From a virus (taxonomy: Duplodnaviria; Caudoviricetes): a DNA stretch of 64,000 nucleotides. Below are positions 945-62,894 of this stretch, piece by piece. The notes under the pieces are model-generated. The model saw only the letters and a program-made list of their open reading frames with translations, ran no database searches and was not told the origin of the DNA. Position 1 is the first letter of the stretch. The number at the start of each line of letters is the position of its first letter. Made by a program: the position numbers and the translations under genes. The stretch is from the IMG/VR virus record IMGVR_UViG_2700988794_000001, positions 45,559 to 109,558 of that record; one strand, given 5' to 3'.

Positions 945-2239
945 GCATTGGTCTACAGCTTGTCCGAGCGGCAATTGAAGGCGGCTCTCGGGAAGCCTTG
1001 CGGCAGGTTCCGATCACCCTGTTTACCCCAGACGAGTTGCCTCGCGTGCAGTTCGTCGTCAACCATATCAGCAACCACGGTGCCCTGCCCTCCATCCAGA
1101 TTTGCACCGAGAACGGCATCACGTTCCCCGGCACAAATGGAGGTAACTTCTCCTATTTCATGACGCGCCTTCGTCAGCGCGCCATCACCAACTCGGCGAC
1201 CGCTGGCGCTCAGGGGCTGCTCGCAGCTATCCGCGCCCGCAACGACCAGGACATCGTCAGCATCGTAGAGAACATGCATGGTCAGATGACCTCTGTTTCT
1301 CAGAACGAAAGCACGATGCCTATCACGAACGCCATCCAGGCGGCGTGGCAGGAATACCATGAAGCCCGTGCAAACCCAGGCATGCGCGGCATCACGACCG
1401 GCTTCAGCGTCCTTGACCGCGTGACCGCTGGTCTCCGCCCCGGCGACGTTACGACCATCGTGGCACGCCCCGGCGTCGGCAAGTCCTGGACGATCCTGAA
1501 CATGGCTCTTCGGGCTTGGCTGGCAGGAAACTCTGTCTGCTTCGTTTCGATGGAAATGACCGCCATCGAAACAGCACGCCGCCTGATCGGTATGGCGACT
1601 GGCGTCAACCCCGACTTCATCTCGCGTGGCACCGTCTCGCATTGGGCGGAAGACAACGTCGAGCAGTGGATCGCCACCGTGCCGGGCCGTCCGCCGTTCA
1701 TCCTCATGGTTGGCGACCTGTCGAAGTCCGTCCAGGACGTTGACTACATGATCATGGAGTACGAGCCCGACATCTGCTATGTCGATGCCTCGTACCTCCT
1801 GAAGCCGACCGAAGGCAACATGTTCCGTGGCAAGCGCTGGGAGAGTGCCCAGCAAGTCGCCGAAGGCATCAAGGGTGTCGCCCTCAAGCGCCACCGCCAT
1901 ATCGTCCAGACCGTGCAGTTCAACCGCTCTCAGACGGTTGACGAAGAGATGAGCCTCGACAACATCGGCGGCACCGACGCTTACGCGCAAATCTCCTCCC
2001 TCGCCATGGGTATCCGCATCGGCGCGGCTCCCAACGAACGTAGGCAACGCCGCTACGGCTTGCTGAAGAACCGCCACGGTATCGATTGGCTGACCTTCGA
2101 GACCAACTTCATCTTCGACCCGTTCAACATGGACGTTCTCGGCAGCAACCTCCCCGCTGACCTGGACACTGACGTGTTGCCTGAAGACGCTCCGGACCCG
2201 ATCCCCGGCGAAAACTTCGGACACATGGAGAACCTGTAA
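941..2239 (+). CDS. dnaB: replicative DnaB-like (SF4) helicase
   Basis: ITTGF..LD, Walker A ARPGVGKS, SMEM, YVDASYL, VQFNR, KNRHG. Confidence 0.95.
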   Translation: MSIGLQLVRAAIEGGSREALRQVPITLFTPDELPRVQFVVNHISNHGALPSIQICTENGITFPGTNGGNFSYFMTRLRQRAITNSATAGAQGLLAAIRARNDQDIVSIVENMHGQMTSVSQNESTMPITNAIQAAWQEYHEARANPGMRGITTGFSVLDRVTAGLRPGDVTTIVARPGVGKSWTILNMALRAWLAGNSVCFVSMEMTAIETARRLIGMATGVNPDFISRGTVSHWAEDNVEQWIATVPGRPPFILMVGDLSKSVQDVDYMIMEYEPDICYVDASYLLKPTEGNMFRGKRWESAQQVAEGIKGVALKRHRHIVQTVQFNRSQTVDEEMSLDNIGGTDAYAQISSLAMGIRIGAAPNERRQRRYGLLKNRHGIDWLTFETNFIFDPFNMDVLGSNLPADLDTDVLPEDAPDPIPGENFGHMENL

Positions 2240-5066
2240 TGCCAGCTATGCGACCACGCCATGTGCAGCTTGAAGAAAAACGACCGGTGCAACAAGTTGC
2301 AGGCGCTACCCACATGCGTCGGGCGGAGGAAGGCGGTCGCCACACCTTCAGCTTCGGACCCTACGACCACCCGGTAACCGATGAGAAGTGCGGCGACATC
2401 CTGGTTGTATGCGATGCGCAGAATTGGGATGCTCAGCGTTGGGGCTACCCGATGCATCCCGATAGCATGAGGATGTTCGCCAAAGCCGCAGAGAAGGCTG
2501 GAGTTCCTGACGGCAAGATCACCTTCCTCGGCCTCTGCCCGCCCGTGCCGACCCAGGACATCAAGTCCGCCGCCCGCACCTGGAAGCACGTCGAGAAGTT
2601 CGTGCCCGGCGTCATCGAGTACATCAATCAGCAGAAGCCGAAGGTCGTCGTCACCCTTGGCGCGCTCGCCAGCCGTGCCGTCTTCGACCGTTCCGTGTCG
2701 ATCACCAAGGCCCGTGGCGTCCTCGTGCAGCCGCACCCCCACCGCCCTCACGTCTTCCCGATGCTGTCGCCCGGCTTCATTGCCCGCGTCCCGGAACACC
2801 AGAAGACTTTCGAAGGCGACATTGGCACGCTCTCGAAGTTCGTACATGCCGGGTTCGATCCGAATGGCATCATGACGATGGAGACCGACTACCAGTGGTG
2901 CTACGATCTCCAGTTCATGATCGACAACCCGCCACAGGCCCTTGCCGTTGACACAGAAGGCACAGGGCTGCGTTGGCACCAGGACAGCACTCGGAACCTC
3001 ACCGTACAGCTATCCCCTCGCCCAGGCGTCTCCTATATCATCCCCGTGGACGAAGCCTATGTGATGAAGTGGGCGAAGTTCTTCCCACCTCGGCTTGCCG
3101 GTCGCTTGGCCGGTTGCGCGAGCAGTTGAAGCAAATTCTGGAAAACCCCGACATCCAGAAGATGGGCCACAACATCAAGTTCGACCATATGATGATCCGC
3201 AAGATGGGCATCAATATGCAGAACGTCAAACACGATACGCAAATGATGGCGTTCGGTGTTGACGAGAACATGATGTCCAAGACCCTGGACGATTGCGTCC
3301 GCGTCTGGGTTCCGCAGATGTCCGGCTATGCCGACGACTTCAACACGCACGTTGACAAGAACAGGATGTTCGACGTGCCACCCGAAGACATCCTGGACGA
3401 AAACGGCAAGGTCATCCAGTACGGCATGCGCCGATACGCAGGCGGCGATACCGATGCCACCTTCCGGCTTGCCCGCGCCCTCTATCCGTTGCTTCGGCGC
3501 GAGCCCAGCCAGTGGAACATCTACGAGCGCATCCATATGCCCGCCCTGATGGCCTTCGCTAATCGCCTGGAGCGGTATGGCATGGTTATCGACCAGGAAG
3601 CGCTACGCAAGCTCTCTGGCGACGTGAAGGCATGGCTGAAGGACGAGTTCCGGGCGCTGATCCGTATGGTGCCTCCTGCCGTCCGCCGCAAGCATCTCGA
3701 AGCCGGTCTCAAGTTCTCCCGTGACCAGTTCGTCCGTGATATCCTCTTCAGCGAAGACGGCTTCAACCTCAAGCCCCAGGTCTTCACCAAGTCCACCGAA
3801 GACCTTTCGGATGAGACCAAGCGCGTGCCGTCCGTCTCGACCAAGGATCACATGCCCTACTTCGTGACCCGCAAGGACACGGCAGGGCAGTTCGTCACCC
3901 GTCTGATCGAGTACCAAAAGACCTCGAAGATGGATAGCACGTATTGTGGCAACGAAGAGGAAAGGACCGGGTTCTGGCAATACCTGAATAGCAGCAGCCG
4001 CATCTTCCCATCCTTCGCGCTGCACAAGACCAACACAGGCCGCACCGCATCTAGCGATCCGAACGGCCAGAACTATCCGAAGCGTGGTCAGTGGGCCAAA
4101 CCGTTCCTGAAGGTCTTCAAGCCCAACCCAGGCTACCGCTTCGTCGCCGCCGACTTGTCGCAGATCGAACTGCGCATCGCTGCCTGGGAAAGCGGCGATG
4201 AAACAATGCTTGACATTTATCGCAATGACGGCGATATTCACATGATGACAGCGGCAGCAACTATGCGCCTCTCTGTCGAAGAATTCCTACAACAAGAACC
4301 TGCCATCCGTAAGTTTAAACGCTTCGCCGCTAAAGCTGTGAATTTCGGCTTCGTTTACGGAATGGGTGCAAAAGGCTTCCGGACCTACGCTAAGACGCAG
4401 TACGGCGTGGATTACTCCGAGCGTGAAGCCTACGAGACCCGCGAACTGTTCTTTGCCACCTACCGGCAACTCATCGCATGGCACGAACGTCGCAAGACCG
4501 AAGCACGTCGCCAGGGCTTTGTGTCCTCGCTGCACGGCGCTATCCGTCACCTGCCGTCGATCTACTCCAGCGACCAGGGCGTGGCGGCTATGGCAGAACG
4601 GCAGGCCGTCAACGCGCCTGTCCAGCGCTTCGGCTCCGACCTCGGCGTCATGGCCCTAACCCGTCTCTCATGGCAGGCAGACCCGGAAATCATGCGCCCG
4701 GTCGGCTTCGTCCATGACCAAGTCATCTGTGAGGCCAAGATCGGCCACGAACTGGAAGCGGCCAACGCCCTGGTATGGGCTATGGAAAACCCGCTGCTCG
4801 AAGAGTGGTTTGGCATCACCGCGCCGCTGCCGATCAAGGCCGAGCCGGATATCGGCGACACCCTCGGCACCACCCTCGAACTGAACGAAATGCCGAAGAA
4901 CGAAGACGGCTCTCTGAAGGTTCCCGACTGGTGGAGCGAGACTGGCATCGAGTGCGTCAACGTCAACGGCACATGGAAGGCCCCGTTCGCCCCGGCCAAG
5001 CCCACATGGTGGAACGACAATGAGGCAGAAGCGCAGGAGCAGTTCACCCGCTTCCTCCACGTTTAA
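2239..5066 (+). CDS. family A DNA polymerase with N-terminal UDG-like domain and 3'-5' exonuclease (frameshift ~3110)
   Basis: UDG-like KPKVVVTLGALA..ITKARG; ExoI AVDTEGTGL; GHNIKFD; TGRTASSDPNGQN; ADLSQIELR; AKAVNFGFVYG; VHDQ. Joins ORFs 2239-3129 and 2973-5066. Confidence 0.93.
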
Positions 5067-5067
5067 A

Positions 5068-5122
5068 TGCAACTTGTTGCACCATTTTAGGTGTTGACAA
5101 AGGATCGGTTCCAAGTTAGATT
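5068..5122 (+). promoter_or_regulatory. palindrome + sigma70-type phage promoter
   Basis: TTGACA 5094-AAGGATCGGTTCCAAGT-TAGATT. Confidence 0.85.
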
Positions 5123-5176: not shown

Positions 5177-5590
5177 ATGCCCCGTACAGCCCGCGCCGTC
5201 AACCTCAGCACCGAACTGACGGCTGACGAAAAAGAACAACAGATGAAGGCCAAGCTGGCGAAAATCCGCCAGTACGCCAAGGCCGAGAGCAAGGCCCGCT
5301 CCGACAAGGACAAGCTCTTGCGTCAGCTTGAAAAAGAGATGACGGCGGCTGGAAAGCGCAAGCTCGAAGTCTTTTACGACAACGAGACCATCATCGGCGA
5401 GATCGGCACTGGCGACCCGCGCAACGTCGTGGACACTGCCCTGCTCGCTTCCAAGATCACACATGCTCAGTTCGTGTCCATCGCCACCGTCGCTGGCGGC
5501 GCGGTCAAGGAAGCCTTCGGCACCGGCATCCTCAATCAGGTGCTTGTCGAAAAGGAAGGCGAGCGCAAGCTTCGCGTCGAGGTCGCGTAA
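5177..5590 (+). CDS. hypothetical protein
   Basis: GAGGAG RBS, downstream of a consensus promoter, phage-like codon usage. Confidence 0.75.
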   Translation: MPRTARAVNLSTELTADEKEQQMKAKLAKIRQYAKAESKARSDKDKLLRQLEKEMTAAGKRKLEVFYDNETIIGEIGTGDPRNVVDTALLASKITHAQFVSIATVAGGAVKEAFGTGILNQVLVEKEGERKLRVEVA

Positions 5591-7446: not shown

Positions 7447-7509
7447 GACAGTGGCTCGGAAGAGACCCTATGGCGGCGTCTGATGTACGCCTTTTGGAGA
7501 AGAGAAAAG

Positions 7510-8558
7510 ATGACTGACACACCTGAAGTCCGCACGCGTTCTCGCACAGCGGCACCATCCACGGAAAGCAATCAGGGCGAAGCAACGGGCGGCATGCGCC
7601 GTACCCGCGTTGCCATGGCTACCGGCTCGGCAGGATCGACCGGCGGCGAAGACACTTCGTGGATGCATACTGGCGACGAAGGCGCGGCCCAGGCCGACAA
7701 GGTTCGTCAGGAGCGTGCATCGCAGGACGCGGAAGCTGCCAAGCGCCCGTCAAGCCCATGCGCTTCAAGCTGGCGTGGAACTTCCAGGATAGCGGCTTCG
7801 GCGAAACTGCCGACGTGGTCATCCTCGACGCGAAGCCCGGCCCGCGCTTCTGGGAGCATACCGCTCGCAACCCGCGTACCGGCTACTGGACGGAATTCGA
7901 GCAGTGCCCCCATGAATGGGACAATTGCCCGCTTTGCCCTCCGGATGGCGAGAAGTCTCCCTACTATGTCATGATGCTTACCGTCATCGACATGCGCGAA
8001 TTCACTGACCGCGAAGGCAAGGTATGGGCAGCGACCCGTAAACTGCTTCCGGTCAAGATCGAGCAGCAGGGCTTCTTCGACGGGCTCTATAAGCAGCATG
8101 GATCGCTTCGCGGCATCCGTCTGATCATGACCCGCGATGGTGGCAAGATGTCGTCGCCGATTGGCAACAACATCCAGTTCGACTGCATCCACACTGAAGA
8201 GGAAATGACCGAATACTGCACGTCCTCCGGCCTCTGGGAAGAGTACAAGCAGGACAACGGTCGCGTCATCTGGGGTGAAGGCGAATTCATCCAGGCCTAC
8301 AATTACGGCAAGATTTTCGAACGCCCTTCCGGTGCCAAGCTGCGCCTGAAGTACAACCCCAGCGGCCAGGGCGACACCATCGGTGGTCGCGACCAGCAGC
8401 AGGGCGAAGGCTGGCGTTCGGGAACCAATCCGGGCCGGGCAACCGGCATGGCACAGCGTAGCTCGCAGCGCCGCGTCAATCTTGACGACACCAAGGGAAC
8501 CGGCGGCTCGGCTGGCGGACCCAACAGTAACGAAATGGATGACAACATTCCGTTTTGA
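7510..8558 (+). CDS. single-stranded DNA-binding protein, gp32-like zinc motif (frameshift ~7750)
   Basis: H..C..CPLC motif, replication-module context, acidic C-terminus MDDNIPF. Confidence 0.7.
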
Positions 8559-8592
8559 TGAGTAACCGGCTTCTCCCGGTGCAACAGGTTGC

Positions 8593-10061
8593 ATGCGCAT
8601 GAATGACATGGTCACAAACGTAGGGAATTCTACGCCGCTAGTGGGCTCACTCGGCGGCTGGCTCTACGTGCCTTACGATGTCATCGGCGACTATGCCGCC
8701 CTGCATCGGGAGAAGACGGCCTTAACCTATCTCCCGAAATTCGCAGAGACAGACAATGACACAGTTCGCCTATATGAAGATGTCCCTCGCCGCAGGGTTC
8801 TCGGCGTTCCGCGCGCTTACGGCCTGGAGCGCTTTGGTCATCTGCTCAACCCGCGAGACCTCCGTACCTTTGGCGAGCGTATGGGTCCGATCCCGCGTCT
8901 TCCAAGTCCAGATCATCCAAGCGTAAAAGACCCGCATGCGCAGGCCAAGTTTATGGCCGACCTCGAAGCCGCCGCCCGCCAGCACTTTCACTTTCTGGCA
9001 GAGGCACCGACCGGCTCCGGCAAGACCGTGTGCGCTATCCGCACCGCTGCCGTGATCGGGCGCAAGACCGTGGTTAACGTCCACCTGGAGCGTCTTCTAG
9101 GCCAGTGGATGGACGAGATACACAACAAGACCGGCCTCCCCTACGACCGCATCGGAATGGTGCAGGGCGACAAGTGGGATTGGCGTGATAAAGATTTCGT
9201 AGTGGCGATGATGCCCACGTTGGCCTCGCAGAATGGTCGCATCGATCCGGCCTTCTTCCAGTCCTTCGGCACGGCTATCTATGACGAAGTGCACAGGGTC
9301 GGCGCTCCCATGCTTGGGCAGACGGCGCACCTCTACCCGGCTCACTATCGTTGGGGCTTCTCCGCCACGCTATACCGCAAGGACGGCGGCGAACGGACCT
9401 TCTACTGGCACATTGGGCCGGTGCGCGTGACCTCCCAGGCCGCTGCCCTGCCGATGACGGTCTACGTCAAGAAGTACACCGCATACGGAAAGCTATGGGG
9501 CAAGAACCACGGAAGCCGGATGCAGTGCCTGTCGCAGGATTGGTCCCGGAACCAATTGCTGGTGGTCTTCATCCGCCGCTTGCATCGCGCCGGGCGTCAG
9601 ACGCTGATCGTCGGCGACAGTGTTCAACATCTACAGCACCTGATGGACCTTTGCGCCCAGGCAGGTGTTTCCCGTGAAGACATGGGACAGTTTACGAGCG
9701 AGCGGCACATACTTCAGGAGTACGTGAACGAAAAAGGGGAAAAGAAGACACGGGTTCGGAAAATCAAGATCAAGCCGGAAGAACTGGATGCCGTTAAAGA
9801 GAACGCGCAACTGATCTTTGCCACGTATGGATGATGACGGAAGGTATCGACATACCCCGTCTCGACGCTGGCATCGACGTGCTACCACGAGGAGACGCAA
9901 CACAACTTATTGGCCGCATTCGTCGGCCACGCCCTGGAAAGCCAGAACCTGTCTGGATCACCCTACTCGATACCAAATGCTTTATGAGCAAGAAGTATTT
10001 TGAGCGCAGGTGCAAGGACTATCAGGCTACCGGTGCGATAATCAGAGAAGGTGCAATATAA
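8593..10061 (+). CDS. superfamily 2 (DExH) helicase (frameshift ~9830)
   Basis: APTGSGKT, YDEVH, SAT, EGIDIPRLD, QLIGRIRR. Confidence 0.9.
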
Positions 10062-10548: not shown

Positions 10549-10941
10549 ATGTCCACGGGAGATTTGACGGTGCGCACTCGTAACAGGGTGCCACCGCCGG
10601 AACCACAAGCCGCCCCTCGGAGGGCTGTCAACCTCCACGTCGAACCGGAATTGGTCATCCACGAAGGTTCGGTCCAGGTCAGTCGCGTCATGTACGGCGT
10701 CGAGACCGAGAGCGTCAACGAGAAGGTCGCCGTGCCGATCTTTCACACCGCTCCGGCTCGCGTCCGCATCAGCGGCGGCATCACCAAGAACCTCGGCGAC
10801 TATAATAGCGCCCGGTTTGATGTCTCGATGGAGCTTCCCTGCTATCCGGAAGACAGCGAGATCGACAGAACGAAGAGCTACATATCGGCCAAGGTCGAGC
10901 AGTATCTTCTGGAAGAAATGGAACAAGCCGGAGTGCCATAA
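10549..10941 (+). CDS. hypothetical protein
   Basis: GGAG RBS; TKNLGDYNSARFDV segment typical of phage proteins. Confidence 0.75.
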   Translation: MSTGDLTVRTRNRVPPPEPQAAPRRAVNLHVEPELVIHEGSVQVSRVMYGVETESVNEKVAVPIFHTAPARVRISGGITKNLGDYNSARFDVSMELPCYPEDSEIDRTKSYISAKVEQYLLEEMEQAGVP

Positions 10942-10942
10942 G

Positions 10943-12123
10943 ATGACTGAAGTCCGTTCCCGTAGCCGTCCCGCTGCCGCACCTGCCGCCGTGCAACCTG
11001 TTGCACCGACCATCGCCACACCCGCCTACAATCGTGGCGAGTTGGCTGGCGTCCTGAAGGCCGTCAACAAGAGCCATGGCGAGGGCATCATCTCCCGTGG
11101 CAACGTCAAGCCCGTGATCGAGCATATCCCCACCGGCATCTTTGCGCTCGACATGGCGACCTTCGGCGGCATCCCGCAGGGCCTTGTGACGCTGCTCTAC
11201 GGCTGGGAAAGCTCCGGCAAGACGACACTCTCCATGAAGGCCATCGCGGGCGCTCAGAAGAAGTACCCGTCGAAGGCTGTCACGGTTATCGACATCGAAG
11301 GCACCTTCGATATGAATTGGGCTCGCAACGGCCACGGCGTCGATACCGACAGTCTGGTCTACGTCAGCCCGTCCTCTGGCGAGCAGGCGCTGGATATCGC
11401 CGATGGCATCTTGCGTGCCGAGGAGACCTCGCTGATCCTGGTGGATAGCTTGGCCGCGCTCATCCCCACCAAGGAACTGGAGAAGAGCTTCGAAGACGGC
11501 GTCGTCGGCGAGCAGGCGCGTCTGATCGGTCGCTTCGTCCGCAAGGTGCAGCAAGCCGTCCTGGAAGAACGTCGCCGTGGGCACGCTCCTGCCATCATCC
11601 TGGTCAACCAGTGGCGCTACAAGGTCGGCGTCATGCACGGCGATCCTCGCACCCTTCCGGGCGGCATGGCGCAGCACTACGTGGCCGGTCTCAAGATCGA
11701 TATCAAGAACAAGGAAAAAGCCGGTCGCGATGATCGTAACATCGAAGTGATCGACTACAACGAGCACTCGTTCACCATCGCCAAAAACAAGATGGGCAAC
11801 GGCATCCGCACGGGTGAGTTCGAGATGATCCGCAACCCGTCGCATTGGCTCGGGCCGGGCTTCATTGACGACGCCAAGACCGTTGTCTCCTACGCCATCA
11901 AGATGGGCCTTGTCGGCGGCTCCGGGGTCGCTACACCTTTGACGGCCTCCCCAATGAGACCTTCCGCAAGTACGATGACATCGCCGAATACATGTACCAA
12001 GACCTGGACTTCTTCGACGCCACCAAGCATCGCCTGATCTCGCTTCAGCGCATTGCTTCCGGCCTCGAAGGCACGGGCTGGTACGTACCGGAAAGCCAGC
12101 AACTCTTGCAGGCCGCAGAATGA
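10943..12123 (+). CDS. recA: RecA recombinase (frameshift ~11925)
   Basis: IPTGIFALD, GWESSGKTT, DIEG, LVDSLAAL, VNQWR, PGG, KNK. Confidence 0.93.
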
Positions 12124-20466: not shown

Positions 20467-21038
20467 ATGACAAATAATCCCCTATCCGCTCGCAAGTTTG
20501 GTCATTGGCATTGGGAGAAGCCCGACTTCGATGACCTGAAAATCCAACGGCTGGTCGAAGAGCACGTGCTCTTGGGCGCTCGCAATGGCCTAAGTGGTCA
20601 TGGCCTATCCCCGGCCCCTACAACGGCCACACAGGGCTTGAGAGGGTCGAGGGATGGAAGCGGGTATGGTTGGCTGTCCGCATGGGCCTGTTGCCTTCTC
20701 CGGCGCAGTGCTCCATCTGCTTCACCCGCACCGGCAGCTTCCAGTACCACAACGAAGACTACTCGCGCCCGCTCCAGGCTAAGCCGGTCTGCCAGTCCTG
20801 TCACAAGATCGTCCATATCCGTTTCAAGAACCCTGACAGTTGGTTGCAACTTGTTGCACGGCATCGCGTCGAGGGTTATCGGCAGTGGTTCGAAGACGCC
20901 CGGATGGCAGAGCGTAACACGGTCGATGGCAGGCACTTGCTCCAGATCACCACGAGGGTTGCCACCAAAGGCATGATGGCTCGCTCGCCTCGCACGGTTC
21001 GCCTGGAAGTAAGGCAAAGAACCCGCAAGACCGACTAG
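20467..21038 (+). CDS. zinc-binding HNH-like protein, probably leaderless (frameshift ~20570)
   Basis: PYNG..CSIC..HNEDYS..CQSCH..H; ATG lies 6 nt after the -10 box. Confidence 0.55.
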
Positions 21039-25090: not shown

Positions 25091-25123
25091 CTGCAACTTG
25101 TTGCACGTCTCTGGGAGAGAACG

Positions 25124-36087: not shown

Positions 36088-36129
36088 TTGACAAAGGATC
36101 GGTTCCAAGTTACTTTGCAACATGTTTCA
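36088..36129 (+). promoter_or_regulatory. phage promoter with a downstream palindrome variant
   Basis: TTGACA-AAGGATCGGTTCCAAGT-TACTTT, then TGCAACATGTTTCA. Confidence 0.8.
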
Positions 36130-39100: not shown

Positions 39101-39797
39101 CCAAGATAAGAATGCTGGCAGCGACAACGCTGATGTGGATCGGCGCTAACGTAGGCCCACGAGAGATGCGCCCTGTCATCACGAGTATGATCGACGCTTG
39201 GGCTGGCATCCCCGGCCAACGTCACCAAGGCCGCACGGGCGGCTTGATCATGGCTCCCTGGTGGGTAGACATCAAAGGCGAGAACCTTGCCCGGCAGCAG
39301 TACAAGGAATGCACCCAGACCGCCTACCACGTCCGGCAGTACATTGAGAACCCTCCTCCGCCTGGATTGTGCGGCGAGATACCCCTTCCACTGGAGCCGA
39401 GGGACGTGCCATGAGCCGCGTCAGCAACTTCTGCATCATCGGCCCTTCCGCCTACGAGGGAGACTACCTTCAGCAACTGAATAATGCCCTCTTCGACCTT
39501 GGTACTAATGATCAGTTTTTCTCGCATCTGACCGGAGAGGGCGGCGCTAAGCACTACGAGTGGTTTATCTACGGCATGGCGGGCGACTTCATGGACGAGA
39601 CGATGGTCATGGCCGCTATGCAGGCGGTGCCCTGGGAGAACCGGCTGGCGTCATTCTCGTATATAAAGAGCAGGATGACGAGGCACCTCACGTCCTGGAG
39701 TGGCGGGAAAGCATGGAAGACGAACCTGTGGTCCGTCCGCCCCCGCCTCAGACCATGAAGCAGCCGAAGGGATCGCGGAAGACCCGCATCGACTGAG

Positions 39798-39849
39798 TGC
39801 AACTTGTTGCAAGGGAATGCTTGACAAAGGATCGTTCCCTTGTTACTCT
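39798..39849 (+). promoter_or_regulatory. palindrome + phage promoter
   Basis: TTGACA 39821-AAGGATCGTTCCCTTGT-TACTCT. Confidence 0.85.
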
Positions 39850-41408: not shown

Positions 41409-41560
41409 CCCGTCCGGGCTAGCCCGAAAGAACCCTATCAAATGTCAGTGATCAGGGTTACAAGTGTCGCCGTGGGTGTTGGGGTTTCAGTTGCGCCCAC
41501 GGAACGACCTGTTAGTGAGCGAGTAACAGGAGCCCTTCTATTCACCCTTTCGAAGGGTTC
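41409..41560. ncRNA. candidate structured non-coding RNA
   Basis: ORF-free gap containing five consecutive stem-loops. Confidence 0.35.
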
Positions 41561-41617
41561 CTGTTGCAACCTGTTGCATGCCGCGCTACGGTAGATTTAG
41601 CAACAGGAGAGGGCTCT

Positions 41618-43476
41618 ATGGCAACTGCACCGAAAATCTTCGCCAGCGGCATCATGCTCGGCAATCCCAAACTCAGCAACGAAGTGATCATCCCCGTGTA
41701 CGAGGCACCCGTCATGCCTCCATCTTACACGTTATGGACCGGCGCGAATAACAAGTACGGCTTCCTCGGCAACATGGTCACCGAAGCCAATGCACCCGCC
41801 GGGCAGTTCATCGGCGCGGTCAAGGCGATCAACCATCCCAACCCTGCCGCCGTCTACTCGATGAGCGGCCAGACAGCGGGCCTCGGCATCCTGGCCGACA
41901 CCGGCTTGATCTATGTGGTCAACGGCACATTGCTGGCGGTCGGCACCAGAACGATCACCATTACCGCGACCAACAGCCTCGGCAGTTCTTCGACCACGCT
42001 ACAGATCAAAGTCGTCGGCACCGCCACCAACGTCATCTACATCGATCCGCTCGGCGGCGCGGACGCCAACACCGGCATCAAGCCATCCCAGGCGATCAAG
42101 ACGTGGGCCGGGCGTAGCGGCAAGGGCTCCGGCACCAAGACCTACCTGATCAAGAACGGCTCCAACCTTGTCGCGGCTGTCACCCTGGCGAATGGCGAGA
42201 CGATTGGCGCTTATGGCGACCCGTCGCAGCCCCGCGCGAAGATCACCACCACCGCCAACTTCGGCGTCACCGGCACGAGCCTGAACAACGCCACGGTCAA
42301 AGACCTGGATATCACCGCAGCCCAGCGCGCCATCCATATCAGCGTCGGCAGCAACTTCGACGTTCGCCGCTGCACCTTCCGGGTGCCCACGGACGGCACC
42401 AACCGCGCTCCCTTCTATACGACCGGCATGACCGGCCTGAAGCTGCTCCATTGCTGGGTGCCTGCCAACTCCTACGGCGACAACGTCTACTGCCGTGGCC
42501 TCAAGAATGCCGAGATCGCATACAACCTGCTTGAGACGCCGCTCGGCAGCACGGCTGACAACCTCCAGGTCACCTCGGAGCGCAACTCGGCCTACCTCTG
42601 CAACGACGTGTGGATACATCATAACACGATGATCAACATGGGCGGCACCTCGGCCAAGGGCAACTGCGTGATCGAAGGTTGCGTGCGTGCCTGGTAGAAG
42701 ACAACGACTTCAGCGGCCTCTATTTCTGCCTGTCGTCGGTCTCCTCGCTGAACACGCTGCGCAACAACCGCATGAACAACGCCACCTATAGCTCCAACTC
42801 GTTCACCATGGGTATCGGCTCGACATACAGCATTGGTGACCAGCAGTGGTACGATAACCACGCATTCGGGCCGGGCAACCGCGCCTTTGTCATCTCTGGA
42901 TCGGGCGAGGCCTCCGGCGCTCCGTTGTGGTCGCGCTACGACCTGGAAATCAACGACAACATCGGCGAAGGCCACACGACGTTCTTCTTCCAGAACCGCC
43001 TGATGTCCGGATACTTCCAGAACAACGTCGGGCAGTCCAACGTCAGCAATACTGTGACCGGCGTGACCACCGTGGCGACCGGCGGCGACTATACCACCCG
43101 CACCGTCACCCCGAACTTCCTCAACGCCGCGCCTGGACCCGTCTGCACCGCCAAGGGACAGGTCACAGGCACGGTCCAGGATGGTCAGACGGTCACCGTG
43201 TCGGCTCCGACCTTCGAGGGCGCTGTCAGCATCCAGTACCAGTGGCGCTTGAACGGCAAGTACGTCGCGGGCGCAACCACGCAGAGCTTCACCATCCCGG
43301 CGGGCTTCAGCGCCACGGTCTCTGATAGGGTGCCCACCACGGCGGCGACCGGCTTCCCTGGCGGCTCGGCTGGCGAACTGTCCTGCATCACCCGTGGCGT
43401 GGACGCGGCTGGCAACGTCATGATCGCTCCGGCCAAGTTCGCAAATGACGAATACTACATGCCCATCGCCGCATAG
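41618..43476 (+). CDS. right-handed beta-helix (pectin-lyase-like) fibre/depolymerase-like protein with Ig-like domains (frameshift ~42690)
   Basis: YIDPLGGADANTG..A.KT motif, Asn/Gly/Thr-rich repeats, C-terminal YQWRLNG..VAGAT Ig-like unit. Confidence 0.7.
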
Positions 43477-46168: not shown

Positions 46169-46722
46169 CACGCAAGCTTTTCCTCGATCTCGACGGCGTC
46201 ATGGCCGACTTCGACACGCACTTCTATCAGTGCTTCGATTGCCATCCTCCCTCCAAGGGTGGCGTCAGCGACGACGAACTGTGGCGGCTCGTGCACGGCC
46301 ACGGCTCATTCTTCCGGACCATGCCCATGTACGACGGGGCCAAGTCCTTCTTCGATATGCTGGTCGCCTACGGGCTTAACCCGATCATCCTGACGGCGGC
46401 ATCGAAGAAGCACTACCACGACATGGCCCGGCAGAAGCGTGCATGGGTACGCGGGAACCTCACCACCGAACACCTGATCCTTCCTGTCCAGGGCGGCAGC
46501 GCCAAGCCTCTCTTCATGCATGCGCCCGGCGACGTGCTCATTGATGATTGGTGGCGGAATTGCGAGCGCTGGATGGAAGAAGGCGGCACGGCAATCCACC
46601 ATACCGACTTCGCCACCACCTCGCTCCGGATCGGCATGATTTGGGGCATGGACAGCAGGCGCGAGAGCCAGGGCCTGCCCTTCCAGCCGGTCTACACCGA
46701 GGAGGATTTCCTCAATGTCTGA
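46165..46722 (+). CDS. HAD-family 5'(3')-deoxyribonucleotidase
   Basis: FLDLDGVMADF, ILTA, K..W, LIDD. Confidence 0.85.
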   Translation: MTRKLFLDLDGVMADFDTHFYQCFDCHPPSKGGVSDDELWRLVHGHGSFFRTMPMYDGAKSFFDMLVAYGLNPIILTAASKKHYHDMARQKRAWVRGNLTTEHLILPVQGGSAKPLFMHAPGDVLIDDWWRNCERWMEEGGTAIHHTDFATTSLRIGMIWGMDSRRESQGLPFQPVYTEEDFLNV

Positions 46723-49700
46723 TGCACTCGTGAGCAAATGGTGGATGGCGCGCTCGCTGTCCACCGCAGAGCGTGCGACCTTGACGCCCGAGCAGAAAGC
46801 CGAGCGCCGGGCGCAGGCAGTCCACTGGCGTCTCGAAGATGCCGAGAAGAAGCTGACAGTCAGCCGCCGCAAGCGCATGACACGCTGGCTGAACCAGTGG
46901 TTCCGTGGCGAAGTCATGCGCGAACTACTCTATAACGAGGAAACCGGCGGCTTCTACAGCCTGAAGGCCTTCATCCGCAGCGAATTCATCGACGCCGTCC
47001 GGGTGGCACTGCGCGGCACCGATCAGGCGTCCATGCTGGAGAGGATCATCCGTGGCGAGGTCGGCAAGGTTCTCAGAGGCAACGCCTACGGCACCGACGC
47101 CGATGGGCAAGCGAAAATGGAAGAATACATCCAGAAGCTTGTCAAGGAAGAAGTCAAAAAGCAGGTGATGAGCAGCCTTAGCATCGACATCGCCGTAACG
47201 GGCCGCGTCTTCTCGCCTCCGGCAGGGCAGCGGCGCGTTGATCTGGGAGCACCTGAATAATGGCAATGAAGCATATCAGCGACAAGCAGGTGTGCGAGGC
47301 CTACCTCGCCGCCCGGCTCGACAGCGAGCGTTTTCCTTACGACTACCTCATGGAGGTGACCGGCCAGCCGTTCAAGGTCTGCTACCGCTGCATGGAACGC
47401 GCCTGTGATCGCGGCATGATCGAGTACGGCGTCTCGCTGCGCACCGGCTGGCTAACCGAGTACGGCTTCCGGGTGGCGGAGATCGAGCCCTTCAAATGGT
47501 GCGAGGGGAAGGAATTCGTGCCGATCCCTTACAAGCCGCCCAACTTCAACCCCGCCCTGGAGCGGATGGCGATGGACCTCCTCAACGGTATTGTTGACGA
47601 CATTGAGGAAATCCTCGTCAAAGGACACAACGGAGAGAAACGTGACTGAAATTCCCTACCCGCACGCCAGCACGGAACCGCTGGAGACCATCAGGTCCAA
47701 CGAATGCGAAAGCCAGCACGGCTCGCTCTGCACCCGGCGCTTCCAAGCGTTCTGGAACGAGATCGTCCGGCTCCGCGATAAGGTATCCGAACTGGAAGGC
47801 GCAAATCCTGCCAAGGAAGCGTTGCAACTGTTGCAGCCCGCAACGCCAGAGCAGCGCGCCAACATCGCGCCGCCCGAGAAGCCGAACGTCGTGGCCAGCT
47901 ACTATCACGAGTTCGTCATGACGCCGGACACCATCGACATCGAAGACCAGGGCATGGCGATGATCGTGCACGCCGACGCCGATACGCCGGACAGCGATCC
48001 GAACACCATGGCCGTCCGGTTCCACTCCTGGGATGAAACCAAGGAGCATGAGCATCTCCGCTCGTTCGCTGGCAAGTTCGTCACCATCACCGTCGAGGCG
48101 TTCAATGTCTAATAGCGTCCTTGCGCCGTGGATCGGCGAGCTTGGCCTTCAGCAACAGTCCGTTCTCATCCTCGCCTTGCGCGGGCCGGACGGCGACAAG
48201 AAGCATACGCCCTTCAAGCACCTCCTCCGGCCTTACCGAGGCACGATCCTGAAGGCGGCGAAGTTCAACCGCATGCTCCTCATTGACGAGGAGGCCGACA
48301 GCTTCATGACCATGGAGAACTTCGGCGACCCGGTGCGTTGGAACTACGTGGTCAAGGACTTCCTGGAAAACGAGGCAGACGGCTCGGTCCTGCACCACTA
48401 TACCCACTTCATGCACGCCGCGCAGATCATCGGCTACAAGCATCCCGAGGTGGACTACCGCGACCGCTGGCAATGGCTCTACATCCAGTTTTGCAACAGG
48501 TTGCACGTCAACGTGGAGACCGAAGAGCAGATGGATCGCCGCCTCTGCGACTGGAACAAAGTGTTCTGGACCTCTTGACAAAGGATCGGTTCTAAGTTAA
48601 ATTCTTAGTGTCTGAAAGGGGATAACATGACTGAAGAGACCAAAAACCGCTGGGAAGGTATCGTCAAGATACAGTTGCCGCTCGCTGGCAGTGTTTCCGA
48701 TGCGCTGATCTACGACAAGACCAAGCACGTTCACGTGTTTCTGCCGGTCGGCGACGTGGAAGAGATCGCGAAGGGCCGTGTCAAGTTCTTCACGAAGGCG
48801 CGCATCGACAGCGATGGCTTCCTTCATATCGAAGAAGATGCGGAGGAGCAAACGTGGTGAGGGATGTCCGTCTCGATGACACGAGACCAAACGACCGTCT
48901 AGGGACGGACAAATCTCCGATCCCGGAGGGCGGTTTGCCGAAAGGCGAAGCCTCGCACTCGGTTCGCGGTTACTTCGTAAAGGAAGTTGGCAAAGCCGTG
49001 ATCTTCGACGTGCGTGACATGCAGGTGGGGAACCATAAGAACATTATGCTCCCCACCTCGCAGGTTCATATCAAGCAACTCGGCGGCATGTCGGTAGACA
49101 TCTATATGCGCGGGTGGCTTTACAAGGAGAAGTTCCGATGACCGAAGAGAAAGAGAAGACGGGCTATCTCGCCTTCCACAGGGCAAGGCCTTCCCGCTCT
49201 CGGCAGCGACCACCAAGGACGCCTATGATCAGGCGGCAAAGCACTTCGGCGTGCCCAAGCGCACTGCCCACAGGCATATCCACCTCGAAGAAGCGCCGGT
49301 CGGCCAGGGGAGTAACCCCTAATGTGGTATAAGCTGGGAGATGACCACATTCCCGTCGAGACCACGATGGAAGAGGCAAACGCGGACGGCTTCGGCACCA
49401 CTAAGGGCGTCGTGCGGCAGGACGTTCACCTGAGAGGCGCGCTCTCCACAGTCTTCCTTTATCTCGACCACCGTTTCGGCGACGGCCCTCCGATGCTTTT
49501 CGAGACCATGTGGTTCCCATACGATGACAACGACGGGTCCGAAGTGCTGGATCGCTACCCGACGTGGGACGAAGCTCTTGCCGGGCACATGCGCCACGCT
49601 GAAGAGCTTGGCATCGCCGCCGAGATGCAGCAGCGCGATCTGAAGGCAGAGGATGCCAAGGCCGCAGAGAAGAGGAGGCGCAGACATGTCAATCTCGATG

Positions 49701-51947
49701 ACTAGCCCACGTCGCGTCCGCCTCGGCAAGGACTTGGAACCGGCCAAGCGCTTCGTCCGCCCGGACAAGATCGCCGTCGCCATCACCATTGAGGCGCTGG
49801 ATAAGAGCAGAACGTCGGGCGGGTGGTGCCATCCGAACAGGCCAGAGAACATGGAGCCTGTGTGGGAGAAGCTTTCCGAGCTTTGCGACTACTACCACGA
49901 GAAGGAAGTGCCCTTCAACGTCTGGTATCAGGTGGAATTGCACAGCATGGGCGTGGTTGTCACTACCGGAAGCTGGCAGCAGTACCCAAGGGTTCTTGAG
50001 CAGGCCCAACTGCTCCTCGAAGAGTGCCTGAAGGCCAAAGGGCGCATCGACGCCGAAGACTATAATAAAGAAAGGGTGGAATATCGTGGCGGCTAAGAAA
50101 TTACGACCATCGACACCGGGCCATAAGCAAAAGGGCTACTATGGCGCTGATCCGGTCAAGGAAGGCCAGGAGACGCCGATCATCGCCGTCAAGAAGGGCA
50201 TGCAGAGGGCGATCAAGACGCCTTGCGTAGAGTGCCCTTCCGGCGAGACAGCGCGTCCGGCTACCTCGGAGGCTATACGCCCGAGATGTACTTGGATGCC
50301 GTCCATTCCCCGGCCTCGCTCGCTTGCCACCGGTCGCCCGGCTTCCACGAAGGTGACATCGAGAAGCAGCGCGTCTGCACCGGCCTCGCTGCCTTCCGCG
50401 CCAACATCGGTCACATTGCCTCCACCGACGCCATGGTTGAGCGCTGGGATGGCAAGGGCCACGTCTGGTCCAAGGTTCCGACCGCCGCCCATGAGAGCAC
50501 GCAGTTCGTTGGCTGCGACGACGAGACCTATTTCGGCAACGAGCAGGAATTCTACGATCACCACAAACCGGGACAGGTGAAATGAAGTACCCTCACACCA
50601 AAAACGAATTCAGCAAGGCTCGCTACGCCAAGCTCGAAGATGCAACTGTTGCAATGTACGATACCGTACCGAGCGAGATTAAGTGCAACGTCTTCAAGGC
50701 GCACCGCTGGGCCAAGGACTTCCTCATGCGGCGCGAGGGCTCTGGCCACCACTTCTGCCTGCATCGCGAGAAGAACGGGCTCATCTCCTGCTCGTTCGCA
50801 AAGCCCGAGTGGGCTGGCGATCACGGCGGCATGGAGATGCCCACGGGCGCTGAAGCCATCGTCCGTGCCGTCTGCGAGTATGTCCATGGATACTGACCTG
50901 GAAGAGTGGTCAAACCGCAAGCTCTCTGCCGAGATACAGCGCCTCCTCACGGACGGCGCGAAGGAGATGCTTGGCGATGACCTCCTCCTCCGGACTAAGC
51001 CTTGGCGTGCCGAGCTTTGGAAGCTGTTCAAGGAAGTTGACGTGCGTATCTGCCCTACCCCCGAAAACCAACGAAAGAGGAACCGATGAAGATCATCACT
51101 TTCAAGTCAGAGAATGCGCCACCAGAAAAGCGTTGGGTGGCGTACTGGCTTGTGGCCAAGAAAGAAGAGACGCCGCCGACCAAGAAAGCGCCACCTTCAA
51201 AGGAAGGCATCATGCCATATTCCTTTTGGGGCACGAGCGAGGAAGAGGCGGTCTCGAAAGCGCAGATCGGCTGGAACACGTCGTTCGGCAAGGGCGAGGC
51301 ACTGAAGGCGGCTGTGTCCACCGTCCGCGTTCGGGTGAGGGCATGATGCACGAAAATTACCATGGTATGGTCACTGACCTCGTCAAGGCCGTGAAGGAAA
51401 GTGCCTTCCTCTTGTCTGTTACCGACAAGAAGGTGAAAAAGGCTCTAAAGAAAATGATCGATGCGGTGGAAAGGCATGATGCCTACATTGCCGCCGTCGA
51501 GCGTCACCAGAACGACCCGGAGATACCCAAGGAACCGGTTCCCGATCCGGATCACCCAGGTATCTACCTGAATACCAAGCCGCCCGAGGAAGAGCCCAAC
51601 GTGCCGGCTGTCATGGTGGCAGGGACGGTGACTGTAACTGGAAGCATTGCCCGCAGAACATCCACTTCCAGTCCTATTGCCCCTACGCGGGAGCATGGGA
51701 GCGGCATTGGCAAACCAAGGAATAGGAGATCGATATGTTACAGAGACATCCGGGCAGGGAGCGAATGGCCAGGAAGTGGCAGAGAAAGGCGGCAAAAGCC
51801 GCTGCAAAGGCCCGACTTCACGCCGGTCTACACATGGATGGCGGCGATATGGTCAACTACCTCTACTGGTCTCGCGAAGCCGCCTATAGGGCAGATCAGG
51901 CTCGCATCCACCTCGGCGCGGCAGTAGGAGGCGAGTGGACCGAATAA
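46715..51947 (+). other. run of small hypothetical CDSs
   Basis: 46715-47260, 47260-47649, 47642-48112, 48105-48578, 48627-48860, 48854-49141, 49322-49705, 49698-50096, 50086-50585 (fs, DUF6283-like), 50582-50896, 50886-51089, 51086-51346, 51343-51947 (fs). Confidence 0.7.
48575..48603 (+). promoter_or_regulatory. phage promoter
   Basis: TTGACA-AAGGATCGGTTCTAAGT-TAAATT. Confidence 0.8.
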
Positions 51948-58612: not shown

Positions 58613-59046
58613 TGCTCGACCCTCTGACCATTGACCCTAAAGAACTCGGCTTCAGTTGGGTGGACGAGACCGGCAAGTACCGTTGCTGGATGACGGAACG
58701 GATGAACAGGTATGCCGAGCGCTACTTGAAGCCCATCGTTATCGAGGTGGATCACGACTACGCCAAGCACATATTCCGGGCATGCGGCATCGAACAGCAC
58801 AGGCTCCTCCGGATCACGCCCCAGGTGATCGCGCAGCGCCCCGTCCTCTACGTCGAGTTGGGCGACGGCAGTCATAAGCTCGTGGATGGCAACCACCGCT
58901 ACCTGAAGGCCTCGCTCCTGGGGTGGAAGGACGTTCCGGCGTACCTCTTCAAGAAGAAGCTGGCGGACGACTTCGAACTCGACATCCCGCCGCACATGAA
59001 CGAGAAGTGCAAGCAACACATCCCGTCCTTCTCCGGTATCCGCTAA
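58612..59046 (+). CDS. ParB/Srx N-terminal-like protein
   Basis: PVLYV..HKLVDGNHRY.KA..LG..VPAY. Confidence 0.75.
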   Translation: MLDPLTIDPKELGFSWVDETGKYRCWMTERMNRYAERYLKPIVIEVDHDYAKHIFRACGIEQHRLLRITPQVIAQRPVLYVELGDGSHKLVDGNHRYLKASLLGWKDVPAYLFKKKLADDFELDIPPHMNEKCKQHIPSFSGIR

Positions 59047-59483
59047 TGAGGTACGTCCGGCTCGATGACGATAAGGATCGGCAGAGCGTTGCTGATGCCA
59101 AAGCCGCCGAAGAGCGAAAGCTGAAGCGTAAGCAGGACAAACTGCTTAGGCAGCAGGAGATGGACCGCATCGCAGAGGAGGAGCGCCGCCGCGAAGAGGA
59201 AAAGTTCGCTCGTGCCCTGGAGCGCGAACGGCAGCAAGAGAATACCCGTGTCGAAGTCGTGGCCGCTCGCAAGACGCACATGGCCAAGAACGCTCCCTCC
59301 CTGCAAGAGCTTGCCGATAAAGACCAGTGGACGCCGGAAGACCTAGCCTATGTCCGATACTACATCGGAAGCTCATCCGCCTTCAGGGAAGGGGTGAGGC
59401 TTTCACGCATGAGGGGCAGCTACCACAACATAACACTTTACGGTAAGACGTTCGCCTGGGATGGTCTCGTTACGTCAAACTGA
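59046..59483 (+). CDS. hypothetical coiled-coil protein
   Basis: MRYVRLDD start overlaps the upstream stop. Confidence 0.7.
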   Translation: MRYVRLDDDKDRQSVADAKAAEERKLKRKQDKLLRQQEMDRIAEEERRREEEKFARALERERQQENTRVEVVAARKTHMAKNAPSLQELADKDQWTPEDLAYVRYYIGSSSAFREGVRLSRMRGSYHNITLYGKTFAWDGLVTSN

Positions 59484-61648: not shown

Positions 61649-61672
61649 GTTGATAGTCTAATGGAGAGCCAG

Positions 61673-62284
61673 ATGCCAGATAATGCTGACGGAATAAGCC
61701 GCGCCGTTGAAGAGAAATGCGGCCCAACAGGTCTCGTCTCATGGTACTTGATGGCGGGCCTGATGTACTACCACTTCGATAACCCCATCCTGTCGGATGA
61801 GCGGTTCGACCAGATAGGCAAAACCTTGCTGGCGGCGTGGGACGACATAGTCCACAACCACAAGCACTTCGTGACCAAGGACGAATTGCAAGCAGGAAGT
61901 CTCTTCCTCAAGATCGAAGAGTTCCCGATGATGACGCGCGGCGCTGCTAACGCGGTCCTGACCGGGCTTGGCAAGAAGCTGACGCCGGAGCAACACGGCA
62001 ACCTGTTCTTCTCCGACTTCGTGCCGCCAGAGCGCATCCGGAACAATCCAGAGCTTTACACATACTTCACTCAGGGCGAGGTGAAGAAGTCGTGGCTCGA
62101 CATGCAGAAAGAGCGCCCCGTAGAGACGCCCAAGGCTGAAGAGGCCCCTGTGGTCGTTCGAACCCGCGTTCGCCCGTCTCCGGCCTCCCCTGTGCCCGAG
62201 ATAACCGTTAGGACGAGAACCCGTCCTGCCCCTGCCCCGGCAACCCCGGAAATCCAGGTCCGCACCCGCGTGAGGCCTCAGTGA
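61673..62284 (+). CDS. stand-alone NAD-ligase subdomain Ia-like protein with a repetitive C-terminal tail
   Basis: YYHFDNPILSDERFD motif; three V-R-T-R-x-R-P repeats. Confidence 0.7.
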   Translation: MPDNADGISRAVEEKCGPTGLVSWYLMAGLMYYHFDNPILSDERFDQIGKTLLAAWDDIVHNHKHFVTKDELQAGSLFLKIEEFPMMTRGAANAVLTGLGKKLTPEQHGNLFFSDFVPPERIRNNPELYTYFTQGEVKKSWLDMQKERPVETPKAEEAPVVVRTRVRPSPASPVPEITVRTRTRPAPAPATPEIQVRTRVRPQ

Positions 62285-62327
62285 CGCAGGGAACCGTGCA
62301 ACCTGTTGCACCTCAGATGGTGCGCCT

Positions 62328-62894
62328 GTGAGAAAGATCAAACTTGACCAACCTCACGAGCGGAGCAAGCCCGGCACCCGGCAAGCTTGGTTAGAGGCCA
62401 GCAAATCCGAGTTGATCTATGCGCTGGAGTGCTCACGCAGCCGCATTCGGCAGCTTGGAGACGAGAGCGAAAGGTATCGGCTTCGCTGGCATGATACCAT
62501 AGATGAGCGAAATGCCATCAAGAAGAGCAAGGACGAAACCGAGTGTCAGCTTTACGAGCAGATGGACACGACCATAGGCGCGCTCTATAACTCAGCCATG
62601 AATATGCCGGAGACCAGTCGATGGTCCTACGCCATGGTCGCGGTGCGAGCCCTGGAGATCATGATTGCAGAGTTCCACCAAGCGAACCCCGATCTGCGGC
62701 AGTACGATAAAGCCGCCAGCCGGTATGGCGCAGAGACCTTTTATGCTCTTTGCGTCTGCGCTCGCTTCCACCCGAAACCAGGAGACACTTCATACGTTCT
62801 ATATAGGAAGGGTATCGACTACTCTGACAGCGAGAACGCCTACGAGTATAGGGACATCCACGACACTATAGTGGACGAAATTTTCCCCGATTGA
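62328..62894 (+). CDS. hypothetical protein
   Basis: 188-aa ORF. Confidence 0.65.
   Translation: MRKIKLDQPHERSKPGTRQAWLEASKSELIYALECSRSRIRQLGDESERYRLRWHDTIDERNAIKKSKDETECQLYEQMDTTIGALYNSAMNMPETSRWSYAMVAVRALEIMIAEFHQANPDLRQYDKAASRYGAETFYALCVCARFHPKPGDTSYVLYRKGIDYSDSENAYEYRDIHDTIVDEIFPD

Follow-up and report, generated by a model that had tools for sequence, protein, structure and literature searches.

A terminal short linear motif on unrelated phage proteins resembles the conserved tail of a phage-encoded AAA+ ATPase

Results

The window analysed here is a 64-kb stretch of DNA, bases 45559-109558 (the right 64 kb) of the 109,558-bp, or 109.6-kb, virus record IMGVR_UViG_2700988794_000001, referred to as G000. 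A short peptide with the consensus [RK]-R-x-[VI]-x-L-[DE]-[DE], which we call class A, recurs in this genome as a tag near the ends of proteins that are otherwise unrelated. G000 is a Rhizobium siphophage with ~83% DNA identity to Rhizobium phage RHph_I4, a 108-kb siphophage with nearly all genes on one strand. On the whole record, 176 genes were called by a simple caller based on codon usage and ribosome-binding sites, and conclusions were cross-checked, where possible, against the depositors' annotation of RHph_I4.

In the window, class A is carried, among others, by DNA polymerase I at its N-end, by SSB in its C-terminal linker and by ~15 small proteins without assigned function; all copies are on the + strand. 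In DNA polymerase I, RHVQLEE (2257-2277) forms residues 7-13 of the open reading frame (ORF) at 2239-3129, the N-terminal part of PolA, and corresponds to RNVQLDD in RHph_I4. SSB (7758-8558), whose identity was taken from its orthologues in Agrobacterium phage JP1 and in RcDurkin, has RRVNLDD at 8469-8489 (RRVNLED in RHph_I4). Further N-terminal copies are RAVNLS at 5192-5209 (residues 6-11 of the 137-aa protein at 5177-5590; conserved in RHph_I4), RAVDLSD at 25142-25162 (residues 7-13, ORF 25124-26368; identical in RHph_I4), RSIRLDD at 32841-32861 (residues 2-8, protein 32838-33053), RNVRLDG at 33068-33088 (residues 7-13, ORF 33050-33256), RKVRLEE at 33262-33282 (residues 2-8, protein 33259-33621) and RHVRLDD twice, at 33623-33643 (residues 4-10, protein 33614-34171) and at 35178-35198 (residues 3-9, ORF 35172-35420). 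They continue with RRVRLAD at 40388-40408 (residues 3-9, protein 40382-40741), RDVRLDD at 48860-48880 (residues 3-9, protein 48854-49141; RDVRLGE in RHph_I4), RRVRLGK at 49710-49730 (N-end of the protein at 49686/49698-50096; RHVRLGKD in RHph_I4), RYVRLDD at 59049-59069 (residues 2-8, protein 59046-59483) and RKIKLDQ at 62331-62351 (residues 2-8, ORF 62328-62894). Copies at C-ends are RTVRLE, followed directly by VRQRTRK of the companion motif described below as class B (together 20991-21029; protein 20682-21038), RKVDLSP at 36068-36088 (ORF 35816-36091), the weak class A-like RKTRID at 39776-39793 (ORF 39560-39796), RRVDLGA at 47231-47251, with PE as the last two residues (protein 46715-47260; conserved in RHph_I4), and RHVNLDD at the extreme end of the protein at 49322-49705 (49682-49702).

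The initial annotation of this DNA had listed 19 of these peptides, 13 N-terminal and 6 C-terminal, and every one was found at its position. The SSB peptide is present but lies 22 residues before the C-end, and RTVRLE is likewise 9 residues short of its protein's end. RKTRID exists but has T in the V/I position of the motif, and the ORF listed at 49698 contains its peptide but possibly starts at 49686. Four N-terminal carriers (25124, 33050, 35172 and 62328) depend on upstream starts chosen in the initial annotation; our caller placed the start of one of them further downstream and had no ORF in that frame at the remaining three positions. RNIRID, a class A-like peptide at 30746-30763 (residues 3-8, protein 30740-30985), was absent from that list. 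Upstream of the window, the motif occurs at the N-end of the portal and in six proteins that end in RRKINLD, KRKTRLDD, RKVSLD, KRNVKL, RRLIDLSD and TRNVRI, respectively. Curated class A carriers number 29 genome-wide (~1 in 6 proteins), of which 20 are within the window.

SSB itself ends in DDNIPF (8538-8558), 22 residues past its class A copy. We take this end to be the type of acidic tip through which bacterial SSB binds partners, so that two different, putative docking peptides would be present on one protein.

Terminal enrichment of the motif was evaluated with patterns of different stringency. In the called proteins, the strict form R.[VI].L[DE][DE] was counted 6 times within the first 20 residues, once within the last 20 and twice in between, whereas the respective means after whole-protein shuffling were 0.02, 0.03 and 0.25. 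As a composition-matched control, residues were shuffled within each terminal 20-residue window only, which keeps the local composition of the ends. R.[VI].L[DE] was found in 10/346 termini versus a mean of 0.46 in this control, and none of 2000 shuffles reached the observed number. The same procedure in RHph_I4 gave 8/324 termini versus 0.49 expected, again with 0/2000 shuffles reaching it. We also searched G000 and RHph_I4 without supplying the motif, by testing every reduced-alphabet pattern with 4 of 6 positions specified. In each genome, basic-x-hydrophobic-basic-hydrophobic came out as the most terminally enriched pattern (16/334 terminal versus 6/1694 internal windows in G000, 17/320 versus 8/1809 in RHph_I4). 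A loose class A expression had 31 terminal and 22 internal matches genome-wide; because it also matches internal sites, a match to it is not sufficient to call a tag.

After removal of the tags, the cores of the 29 carriers showed no relationship at BLASTP E <= 0.01 in any of 406 pairs. The 20 residues that follow N-terminal tags were enriched in K, P, R, Q and E and depleted of aromatics and aliphatics (L, V, I, F), a composition compatible with a flexible linker. A twin-arginine translocation (Tat) signal peptide consists of RR and then a hydrophobic h-region at the N-terminus. This candidate was rejected, as no h-region follows RR in the K/P/R/Q/E-rich, L/V/I/F-poor stretch and tags are also C-terminal.

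The signal had been attributed to the protein level on the ground that codons vary, and the information content of the codons bears this out and refutes a nucleotide motif. For the fixed residues of 26 class A instances, the first two codon positions held 0.8-2.4 bits and the third 0.03-0.32 bits (positions 1/2/3: R, 0.92/1.82/0.03; V, 1.17/2.44/0.32; L, 1.15/2.44/0.15). Arg was written with every one of its six codons (CGC 7, AGA 7, CGG 4, CGT 4, AGG 3, CGA 1) and Leu with five. Class B was equally degenerate, with 1.0-1.8 bits in its Arg codons versus 0.06-0.14 bits at position 3. In a six-frame search, class A matches were in frame and numbered 32 on the coding strand versus 7 on the opposite strand.

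These data bear on the possibility that the tags are a translated DNA repeat at gene junctions, or the result of chance or composition. There is a precedent in the Cluster O mycobacteriophages, where, according to PMC4351075 (section 8), the terminal peptide VRKPNT of Corndog proteins is the translation of an invariant 17-bp palindromic repeat, TGTTCGGNNNCCGAACA. The likeness to G000 lies in a dense repeat at gene boundaries: a 14-bp palindrome is densely spread near gene ends in G000 too, similar in kind to the one of the Cluster O phages, in which the ATPase described below is also found. This palindrome does not encode the class A tag, however, and the tags are degenerate at the DNA level whereas the Cluster O palindrome is invariant. 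A translated repeat would need conserved third positions, or presence in all frames and on both strands, neither of which is seen: third codon positions are nearly empty of information, synonymous codons are mixed, and conservative V/I and D/E swaps occur among instances and between G000 and RHph_I4. Chance is opposed by the observed counts, which shuffling never reached. We consider an origin by translated repeat or chance extremely improbable.

Class A does not match the beta-clamp binding motif either, in agreement with the initial annotation. This motif is given as Q-phi-x-[LM]-[FL] or Q-phi-x-[LM]-x-[FL] in PMC11139829. Like class A, it is short, located at the N- or C-terminus of replication proteins and has two aliphatic residues at i and i+2. 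In the 26 class A instances, Q was never at position 1 and F/L never at position 5 or 6; the positions after L were D/E/S/G/A or a stop codon. Class A thus differs in having acidic residues in place of the terminal Phe/Leu and a fixed Arg two residues upstream. We reject a DNA repeat, chance and a beta-clamp motif. Neither of the two refuting conditions named in the initial annotation, a lack of terminal enrichment over composition-matched controls and a nucleotide motif behind the conservation, was borne out. We are highly confident that class A is a selected, portable, protein-level terminal short linear motif on otherwise unrelated proteins.

Conservation in relatives agrees with selection on the peptide itself. 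Among 28 sites tested, 15 had alignable RHph_I4 DNA over the motif, and class A was kept at 14 of these while the flanks diverged; changes between the two genomes were typically V/I, D/E or at x positions. In the RHph_I4 depositors' gene calls, 12/23 coding-strand class A matches were at ends of annotated coding sequences. In IMG/VR relatives with portals ~50% identical, the protein upstream of the portal ends in RRAVRLDL, KRRVQLDM, RRAIDLD or RRMVELD.

The same peptide is found on an AAA+ ATPase encoded 3.4 kb upstream of the window (557 aa, record 40500-42173). Its tail reads VAVRARSRT-APAVASSGK-RAGMSLDS up to the stop codon, that is, class B, linker and class A. Among the best 120 of 983 homologues, 103 were aligned at full length and gave the tail consensus NNARPAS-x10-RxRxR-x7-GxRxxLDG, in which two Arg positions are at least 90% conserved. 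RxRxR was present in the tail of 82/103, and 72-76/103 tails ended in [LIVM][DE] plus 0-3 residues; within these, the hydrophobic residue was L in 55/76 and the acidic one D in 68/76. The gene adjoining the ATPase gene encodes a 212-aa protein with the C-end RRAVKL, and its homologues end in RRAIDLGD, RRGRALKL or SRAINLD. The ATPase of a distant module (33% identity) has the C-end GRRIDA, and two of its neighbours have GRVITL and GRVIDIE. The tags are identical in kind to the conserved ATPase tail. Since the ATPase and its neighbour end in the same motif, the tag can be described as the ATPase module's own tail, copied onto many proteins.

The AAA domain of the ATPase matches PF00004 (residues 299-425, E 1.7e-29), and the protein also matches phrog_8638. 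Its best PDB matches were VAT, the D2 domain of Cdc48/p97 and PAN. Scores against the CDC48, PAN and FtsH equivalogs were below the NCBIfam cut-offs (127 versus 803, 105 versus 500 and 94 versus 600 bits, respectively), so that the protein is related to these families and not a member of them. Residues 15-250 superposed on Ycf46-family N-domains with a template modelling (TM) score of 0.79-0.82, the aligned part being PF30482 and both structures being predicted models. Directly downstream are DUF1257 (PF06868, E 4.8e-9) and DUF2997 (PF11211, E 2.5e-5), in the same order in relatives. This combination of a classical AAA domain, a Ycf46-type N-domain from model superposition and DUF1257/DUF2997 neighbours places the ATPase in the Ycf46 family. 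In all, the module comprises the ATPase, the 212-aa protein, DUF1257, DUF2997 and a 122-aa protein. In cellular (cyanobacterial) Ycf46, the conserved tail is ARPASSPD.S[RE][WF]...[EV]LF[GD][SC] at the extreme C-terminus, and a terminal hydrophobic-acidic motif seems to be a trait of the Ycf46 family.

Other searches on these proteins yielded little. Profile searches in Pfam, PHROGs and NCBIfam covered 20 proteins, among them 8 tag carriers and those of the module, and pointed to no function beyond AAA, DUF1257 and DUF2997. Sequence searches of the PDB with DUF1257 and DUF2997 returned nothing below E 0.1, and in an Atlas search for the 212-aa neighbour the model was poor and led no further. 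A literature search at the level of search results found no description of the motif and no Ycf46 mechanism. Many ATPase homologues were 750-1000 aa long (e.g. P0076, P0085, P0124, P0136 and P0158) and matched in two stretches. The break fell around residue 306 of the query, next to the Walker A loop, and some of these proteins had intein or LAGLIDADG Pfam domains, which suggests recurrent intein insertion in the P-loop.

The companion motif, class B, has the consensus [EP]-[IV]-x-V-R-[TS]-R-x-R-P. Its core V-R-[TS]-R-x-R-P, often preceded by P-E-[IV]-x, occurred 18 times at termini and once internally. Class B is present on RecA, SSB (N-end) and the portal (C-end). Its copies in the window, all on the + strand, are VRTRSR at 7528-7545, near the N-end of the ORF at 7483-7974 that corresponds to the N-terminal part of the single SSB gene in RHph_I4; VRTRNR at 10570-10587 (N-end, protein 10549-10941); VRSRSR, followed by P, at 10952-10969 (residues 4-9 of RecA, 10943-12037); VRPRLR, with P as the last residue, at 39735-39752 (C-end, protein 39411-39758); VRVRVR, with A as the last residue, at 51323-51340 (C-end, protein 51086-51346); and VRTRVRP, VRTRTRP and VRTRVRP in tandem at 62156-62275 (C-end, protein 61673-62284). 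Six proteins had both class A and class B versus 2.1 expected (p 0.009), a co-occurrence that mirrors the bipartite tail of the ATPase. Proteins with class A or class B or both amounted to 41/177. Besides the triplet in the protein at 61673-62284, a second tandem triplet of class B was observed at the N-end of the protein at record positions 8587-9192. The copies are separated by Pro/Ala-rich linkers of ~12 residues, and this arrangement suggests multivalent binding.

To compare genomes, [RK].[VIL].[VIL][DE] was counted in terminal and internal 15-residue windows. The pattern was strongly terminal in G000 (17/334 terminal versus 9/1694 internal, odds ratio 10) and RHph_I4 (12/320 versus 8/1809, odds ratio 8.8), and more weakly so in G001 (4/208 versus 7/1394) and G003 (8/266 versus 14/1316). 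Class A enrichment was lacking in JP1 (3/298 versus 4/1408), RcDurkin (0/276 versus 11/1494) and SM1 (1/234 versus 10/1517), all of which have the ATPase, with a tail that ends otherwise than in LD. It was lacking also in G004 and G005, controls without the ATPase. The distribution is consistent with tags that follow the tail type of the ATPase. Corndog, too, encodes the ATPase at full length (30% identity, 70-78% query coverage), and its copy ends in KVRVLDL. In this phage, [RK]..[VN]LD was found in 6/216 terminal versus 1/1081 internal windows, the ATPase end included, with a pattern chosen post hoc and one instance on an ORF not annotated in GenBank.

Discussion

The initial annotation had proposed that the tag docks proteins to a single hub, such as capsid packaging, a replication compartment, a clamp or a protease adaptor. 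New relative to it are the ATPase tail as a candidate and the companion motif, class B. Among the proposed hubs, the protease adaptor (an unfoldase adaptor) comes closest to the ATPase module. In the reading we favour, which we judge about as likely to be right as wrong, the tags are a code for docking to, or recognition by, the Ycf46-type ATPase module; binding and the identity of the receptor are inferred. According to this proposal, the tags would bring ~30-40 phage proteins, including PolA, SSB, RecA, the portal and many small early proteins, to the module. One possible receptor is the Ycf46-type N-domain of the ATPase, by comparison with ClpX-SspB, Vps4 MIT-MIM and the cofactors of the Cdc48 N-domain; another is a partner to which the ATPase tail would bind as well, by comparison with HbYX and p97-PUB. 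The clients could then be remodelled, removed at a set time, or co-localised and recruited to a factory. A broader and more tentative version, which we think doubtful though possible, is a proteome-wide address code: the Ycf46-type machine with DUF1257 and DUF2997 would read R-x-phi-x-L-D and V-R-x-R-x-R-P so as to recruit, remodel or retire proteins on schedule. About a fifth of the phage proteins carry either peptide, and the ATPase tail displays both.

Several observations weigh against the ATPase module as the receptor. Because the ATPase itself carries the tag, it may be a client of another hub. The tail is variable in more distant ATPase homologues, of which 29/119 end in [LIVMF][DE]. 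G003 shows the weaker class A signal, yet the ATPase was not found on its contig (77% complete), and the genomes with both an LD-type tail and class A tags belong mostly to one clade. When ATPase tails were compared with the termini of 10 proteomes by 6-mer BLOSUM similarity, no clean diagonal appeared, and covariation of tail and tag across lineages is therefore not claimed. In JP1, RcDurkin and SM1, terminase, portal, PolA, SSB, RecA, RuvC and the ATPase have basic ends particular to each lineage (M-[PA]-I-[KR]-[KR] in JP1, V-K-P-R-P-K in RcDurkin and [IV]-R-R in SM1). Windows with at least 4 K/R, however, were terminally enriched in all 11 genomes, controls without the ATPase included (odds ratio 2.0-3.6). 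As basic ends are generic in every phage tested, loosely basic tags in relatives are no evidence. The basic ends of JP1, RcDurkin and SM1, which had looked like lineage versions of the tag, are kept as an observation of doubtful significance, the same K/R enrichment being found in the two genomes that lack the ATPase.

If the ATPase and its neighbour are mere clients, the hub would lie outside the module and could be host DnaK, host DnaN, the N-domain of host ClpX or another phage protein. The tag on the ATPase itself would be explained, and clients that include replication and recombination proteins and the portal fit such a hub as well. ClpX binds basic-hydrophobic C-terminal peptides such as LRVVK, the tail of SspB, and RRKKAI, the end of MuA, which resemble the ends RRAVKL, KRNVKL and TRNVRI seen here. 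Against this, the tail is conserved over 103 ATPase homologues from many contigs, and DnaN is disfavoured by the poor fit to the beta-clamp definition. Moreover, phages of the close hosts Rhizobium and Agrobacterium have different tags, so that a phage-encoded receptor fits better than a conserved host one, and we regard an outside hub as unlikely.

Fates related to the virion or to DNA were weighed on the same data. A capsid-targeting or processing signal, for procapsid loading or as a prohead protease mark, would suit the portal, tagged N-terminally with class A and C-terminally with class B, and the several tagged genes immediately upstream of it; the L-[DE]-[DE] end also recalls the L/I-x-E cleavage sites of T4. 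Known parallels, the T4 capsid-targeting sequence and the cargo-loading peptides of encapsulins, are restricted to packaged proteins, whereas the carriers here include PolA, SSB, RecA and ~15 small proteins of the early region. The major capsid, scaffold-like, tail and lysis proteins have no tags, the tags are found at C-termini as well as N-termini, and the motif on the ATPase tail would be left unexplained. A capsid signal is in our view improbable. We give similarly little credence to nucleic-acid-binding arms, in which the Arg-rich, beta-strand-like peptides would hold proteins on phage DNA or RNA much as AT-hook-like or 'molecular sled' peptides do. In favour are the Arg-rich composition of class B and its occasional tandem triplets, the many carriers that work on DNA, and the basic termini of orthologues in relatives. 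Class A, however, has almost no net charge, its two fixed hydrophobic positions being accompanied by two acidic ones; basic termini are generic, controls included; and many carriers are tiny proteins without assigned function.

Docking to the ATPase module has partial parallels in known systems. The C-terminal XB peptide of SspB binds the N-domain of ClpX, and ClpX recognition signals, like the tags, are short basic and hydrophobic peptides at either terminus of unrelated proteins, joined to the folded domain by linkers that are flexible or, for the tags, putatively so. G000 also encodes an AAA+ ATPase with an accessory N-domain that is a putative cognate. It differs from the ClpX systems in the tag pattern R-x-[VI]-x-L-D-D and in its ATPase, which is of the Ycf46 family and of the classical AAA type, bears the peptide on its own tail and has no known protease partner. 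Tail docking is established for classical AAA proteins: HbYX tails of PAN, Rpt and Mpa insert into the 20S proteasome, the C-terminal tail of p97 is bound by PUB/PUL cofactors, and the MIT domain of Vps4 binds MIM motifs at the C-ends of ESCRT-III. The G000 ATPase is similar in that its Cdc48/PAN-like AAA domain is followed by a disordered stretch and then, at the extreme C-terminus, by a conserved motif, and in having a family of presumed clients with a common terminal motif. It is unlike PAN, p97 and Vps4 in that its motif is R-x-[VM]-x-L-D-[GS] at the very end rather than Hb-Y-X, that no ring-shaped partner was identified and that the same motif is on both the ATPase and the presumed clients. 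In gene content, the likeness is to the Ycf46/DUF1257/DUF2997 group of cyanobacteria, plastids and phages, with its N-domain, PF00004, downstream DUF1257 and DUF2997, and a conserved tail after ARPAS. The phage clade differs from cellular Ycf46 in a tail that ends in LD[GS] with RxRxR and in the spread of the peptide over the phage proteome.

Many proteins wired to one hub by short docking motifs are familiar in eukaryotes, and the known bacterial hubs of this type are few (beta-clamp, SSB tail, ClpX). One terminal peptide on 29 unrelated proteins of a single phage, with the companion motif raising the number of tagged proteins to 41, is unusual. The link to the ATPase tail turns an orphan motif into a testable hypothesis and bears on a widespread gene group without assigned function, Ycf46, DUF1257 and DUF2997 of cyanobacteria, plastids and ~100-kb phages. 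If the address code were true, it would be the first functional handle on this group. In practical terms, a peptide of 7-10 residues could be used as a reporter fusion or as bait, and the ~15 small early proteins are probably connected to the same machine.

Other features of the window

DNA polymerase I is split into two ORFs (2239-3129 and 3126-5066), as is SSB (7483-7974 and 7758-8558), and each is a single ORF in RHph_I4. The C-end of RecA (10943-12037) is also unlike that of RHph_I4. The split polA and SSB genes and the altered RecA end likely stem from frameshifts, which are either assembly errors in the record or real.

The 14-bp palindrome, TGCAAC-NN-GTTGCA, has 37 sites in the window (e.g. 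5068-5081, 25092-25105, 39798-39811 and 62297-62310). At two or fewer mismatches it gave 74 strand-hits versus 1.44 expected, mostly intergenic. A DNA-binding dimer may recognise it; the phage encodes several ParB-like proteins. A second motif, TTGACAAAGGATCG, resembles a promoter and has 21 window sites, on the coding (+) strand only, versus 0.44 expected. Examples are at 5094-5107, 36088-36101, 39821-39834 and 62891-62904, often ~12 nt 3' of the palindrome, and the motif probably represents a class of phage promoter.

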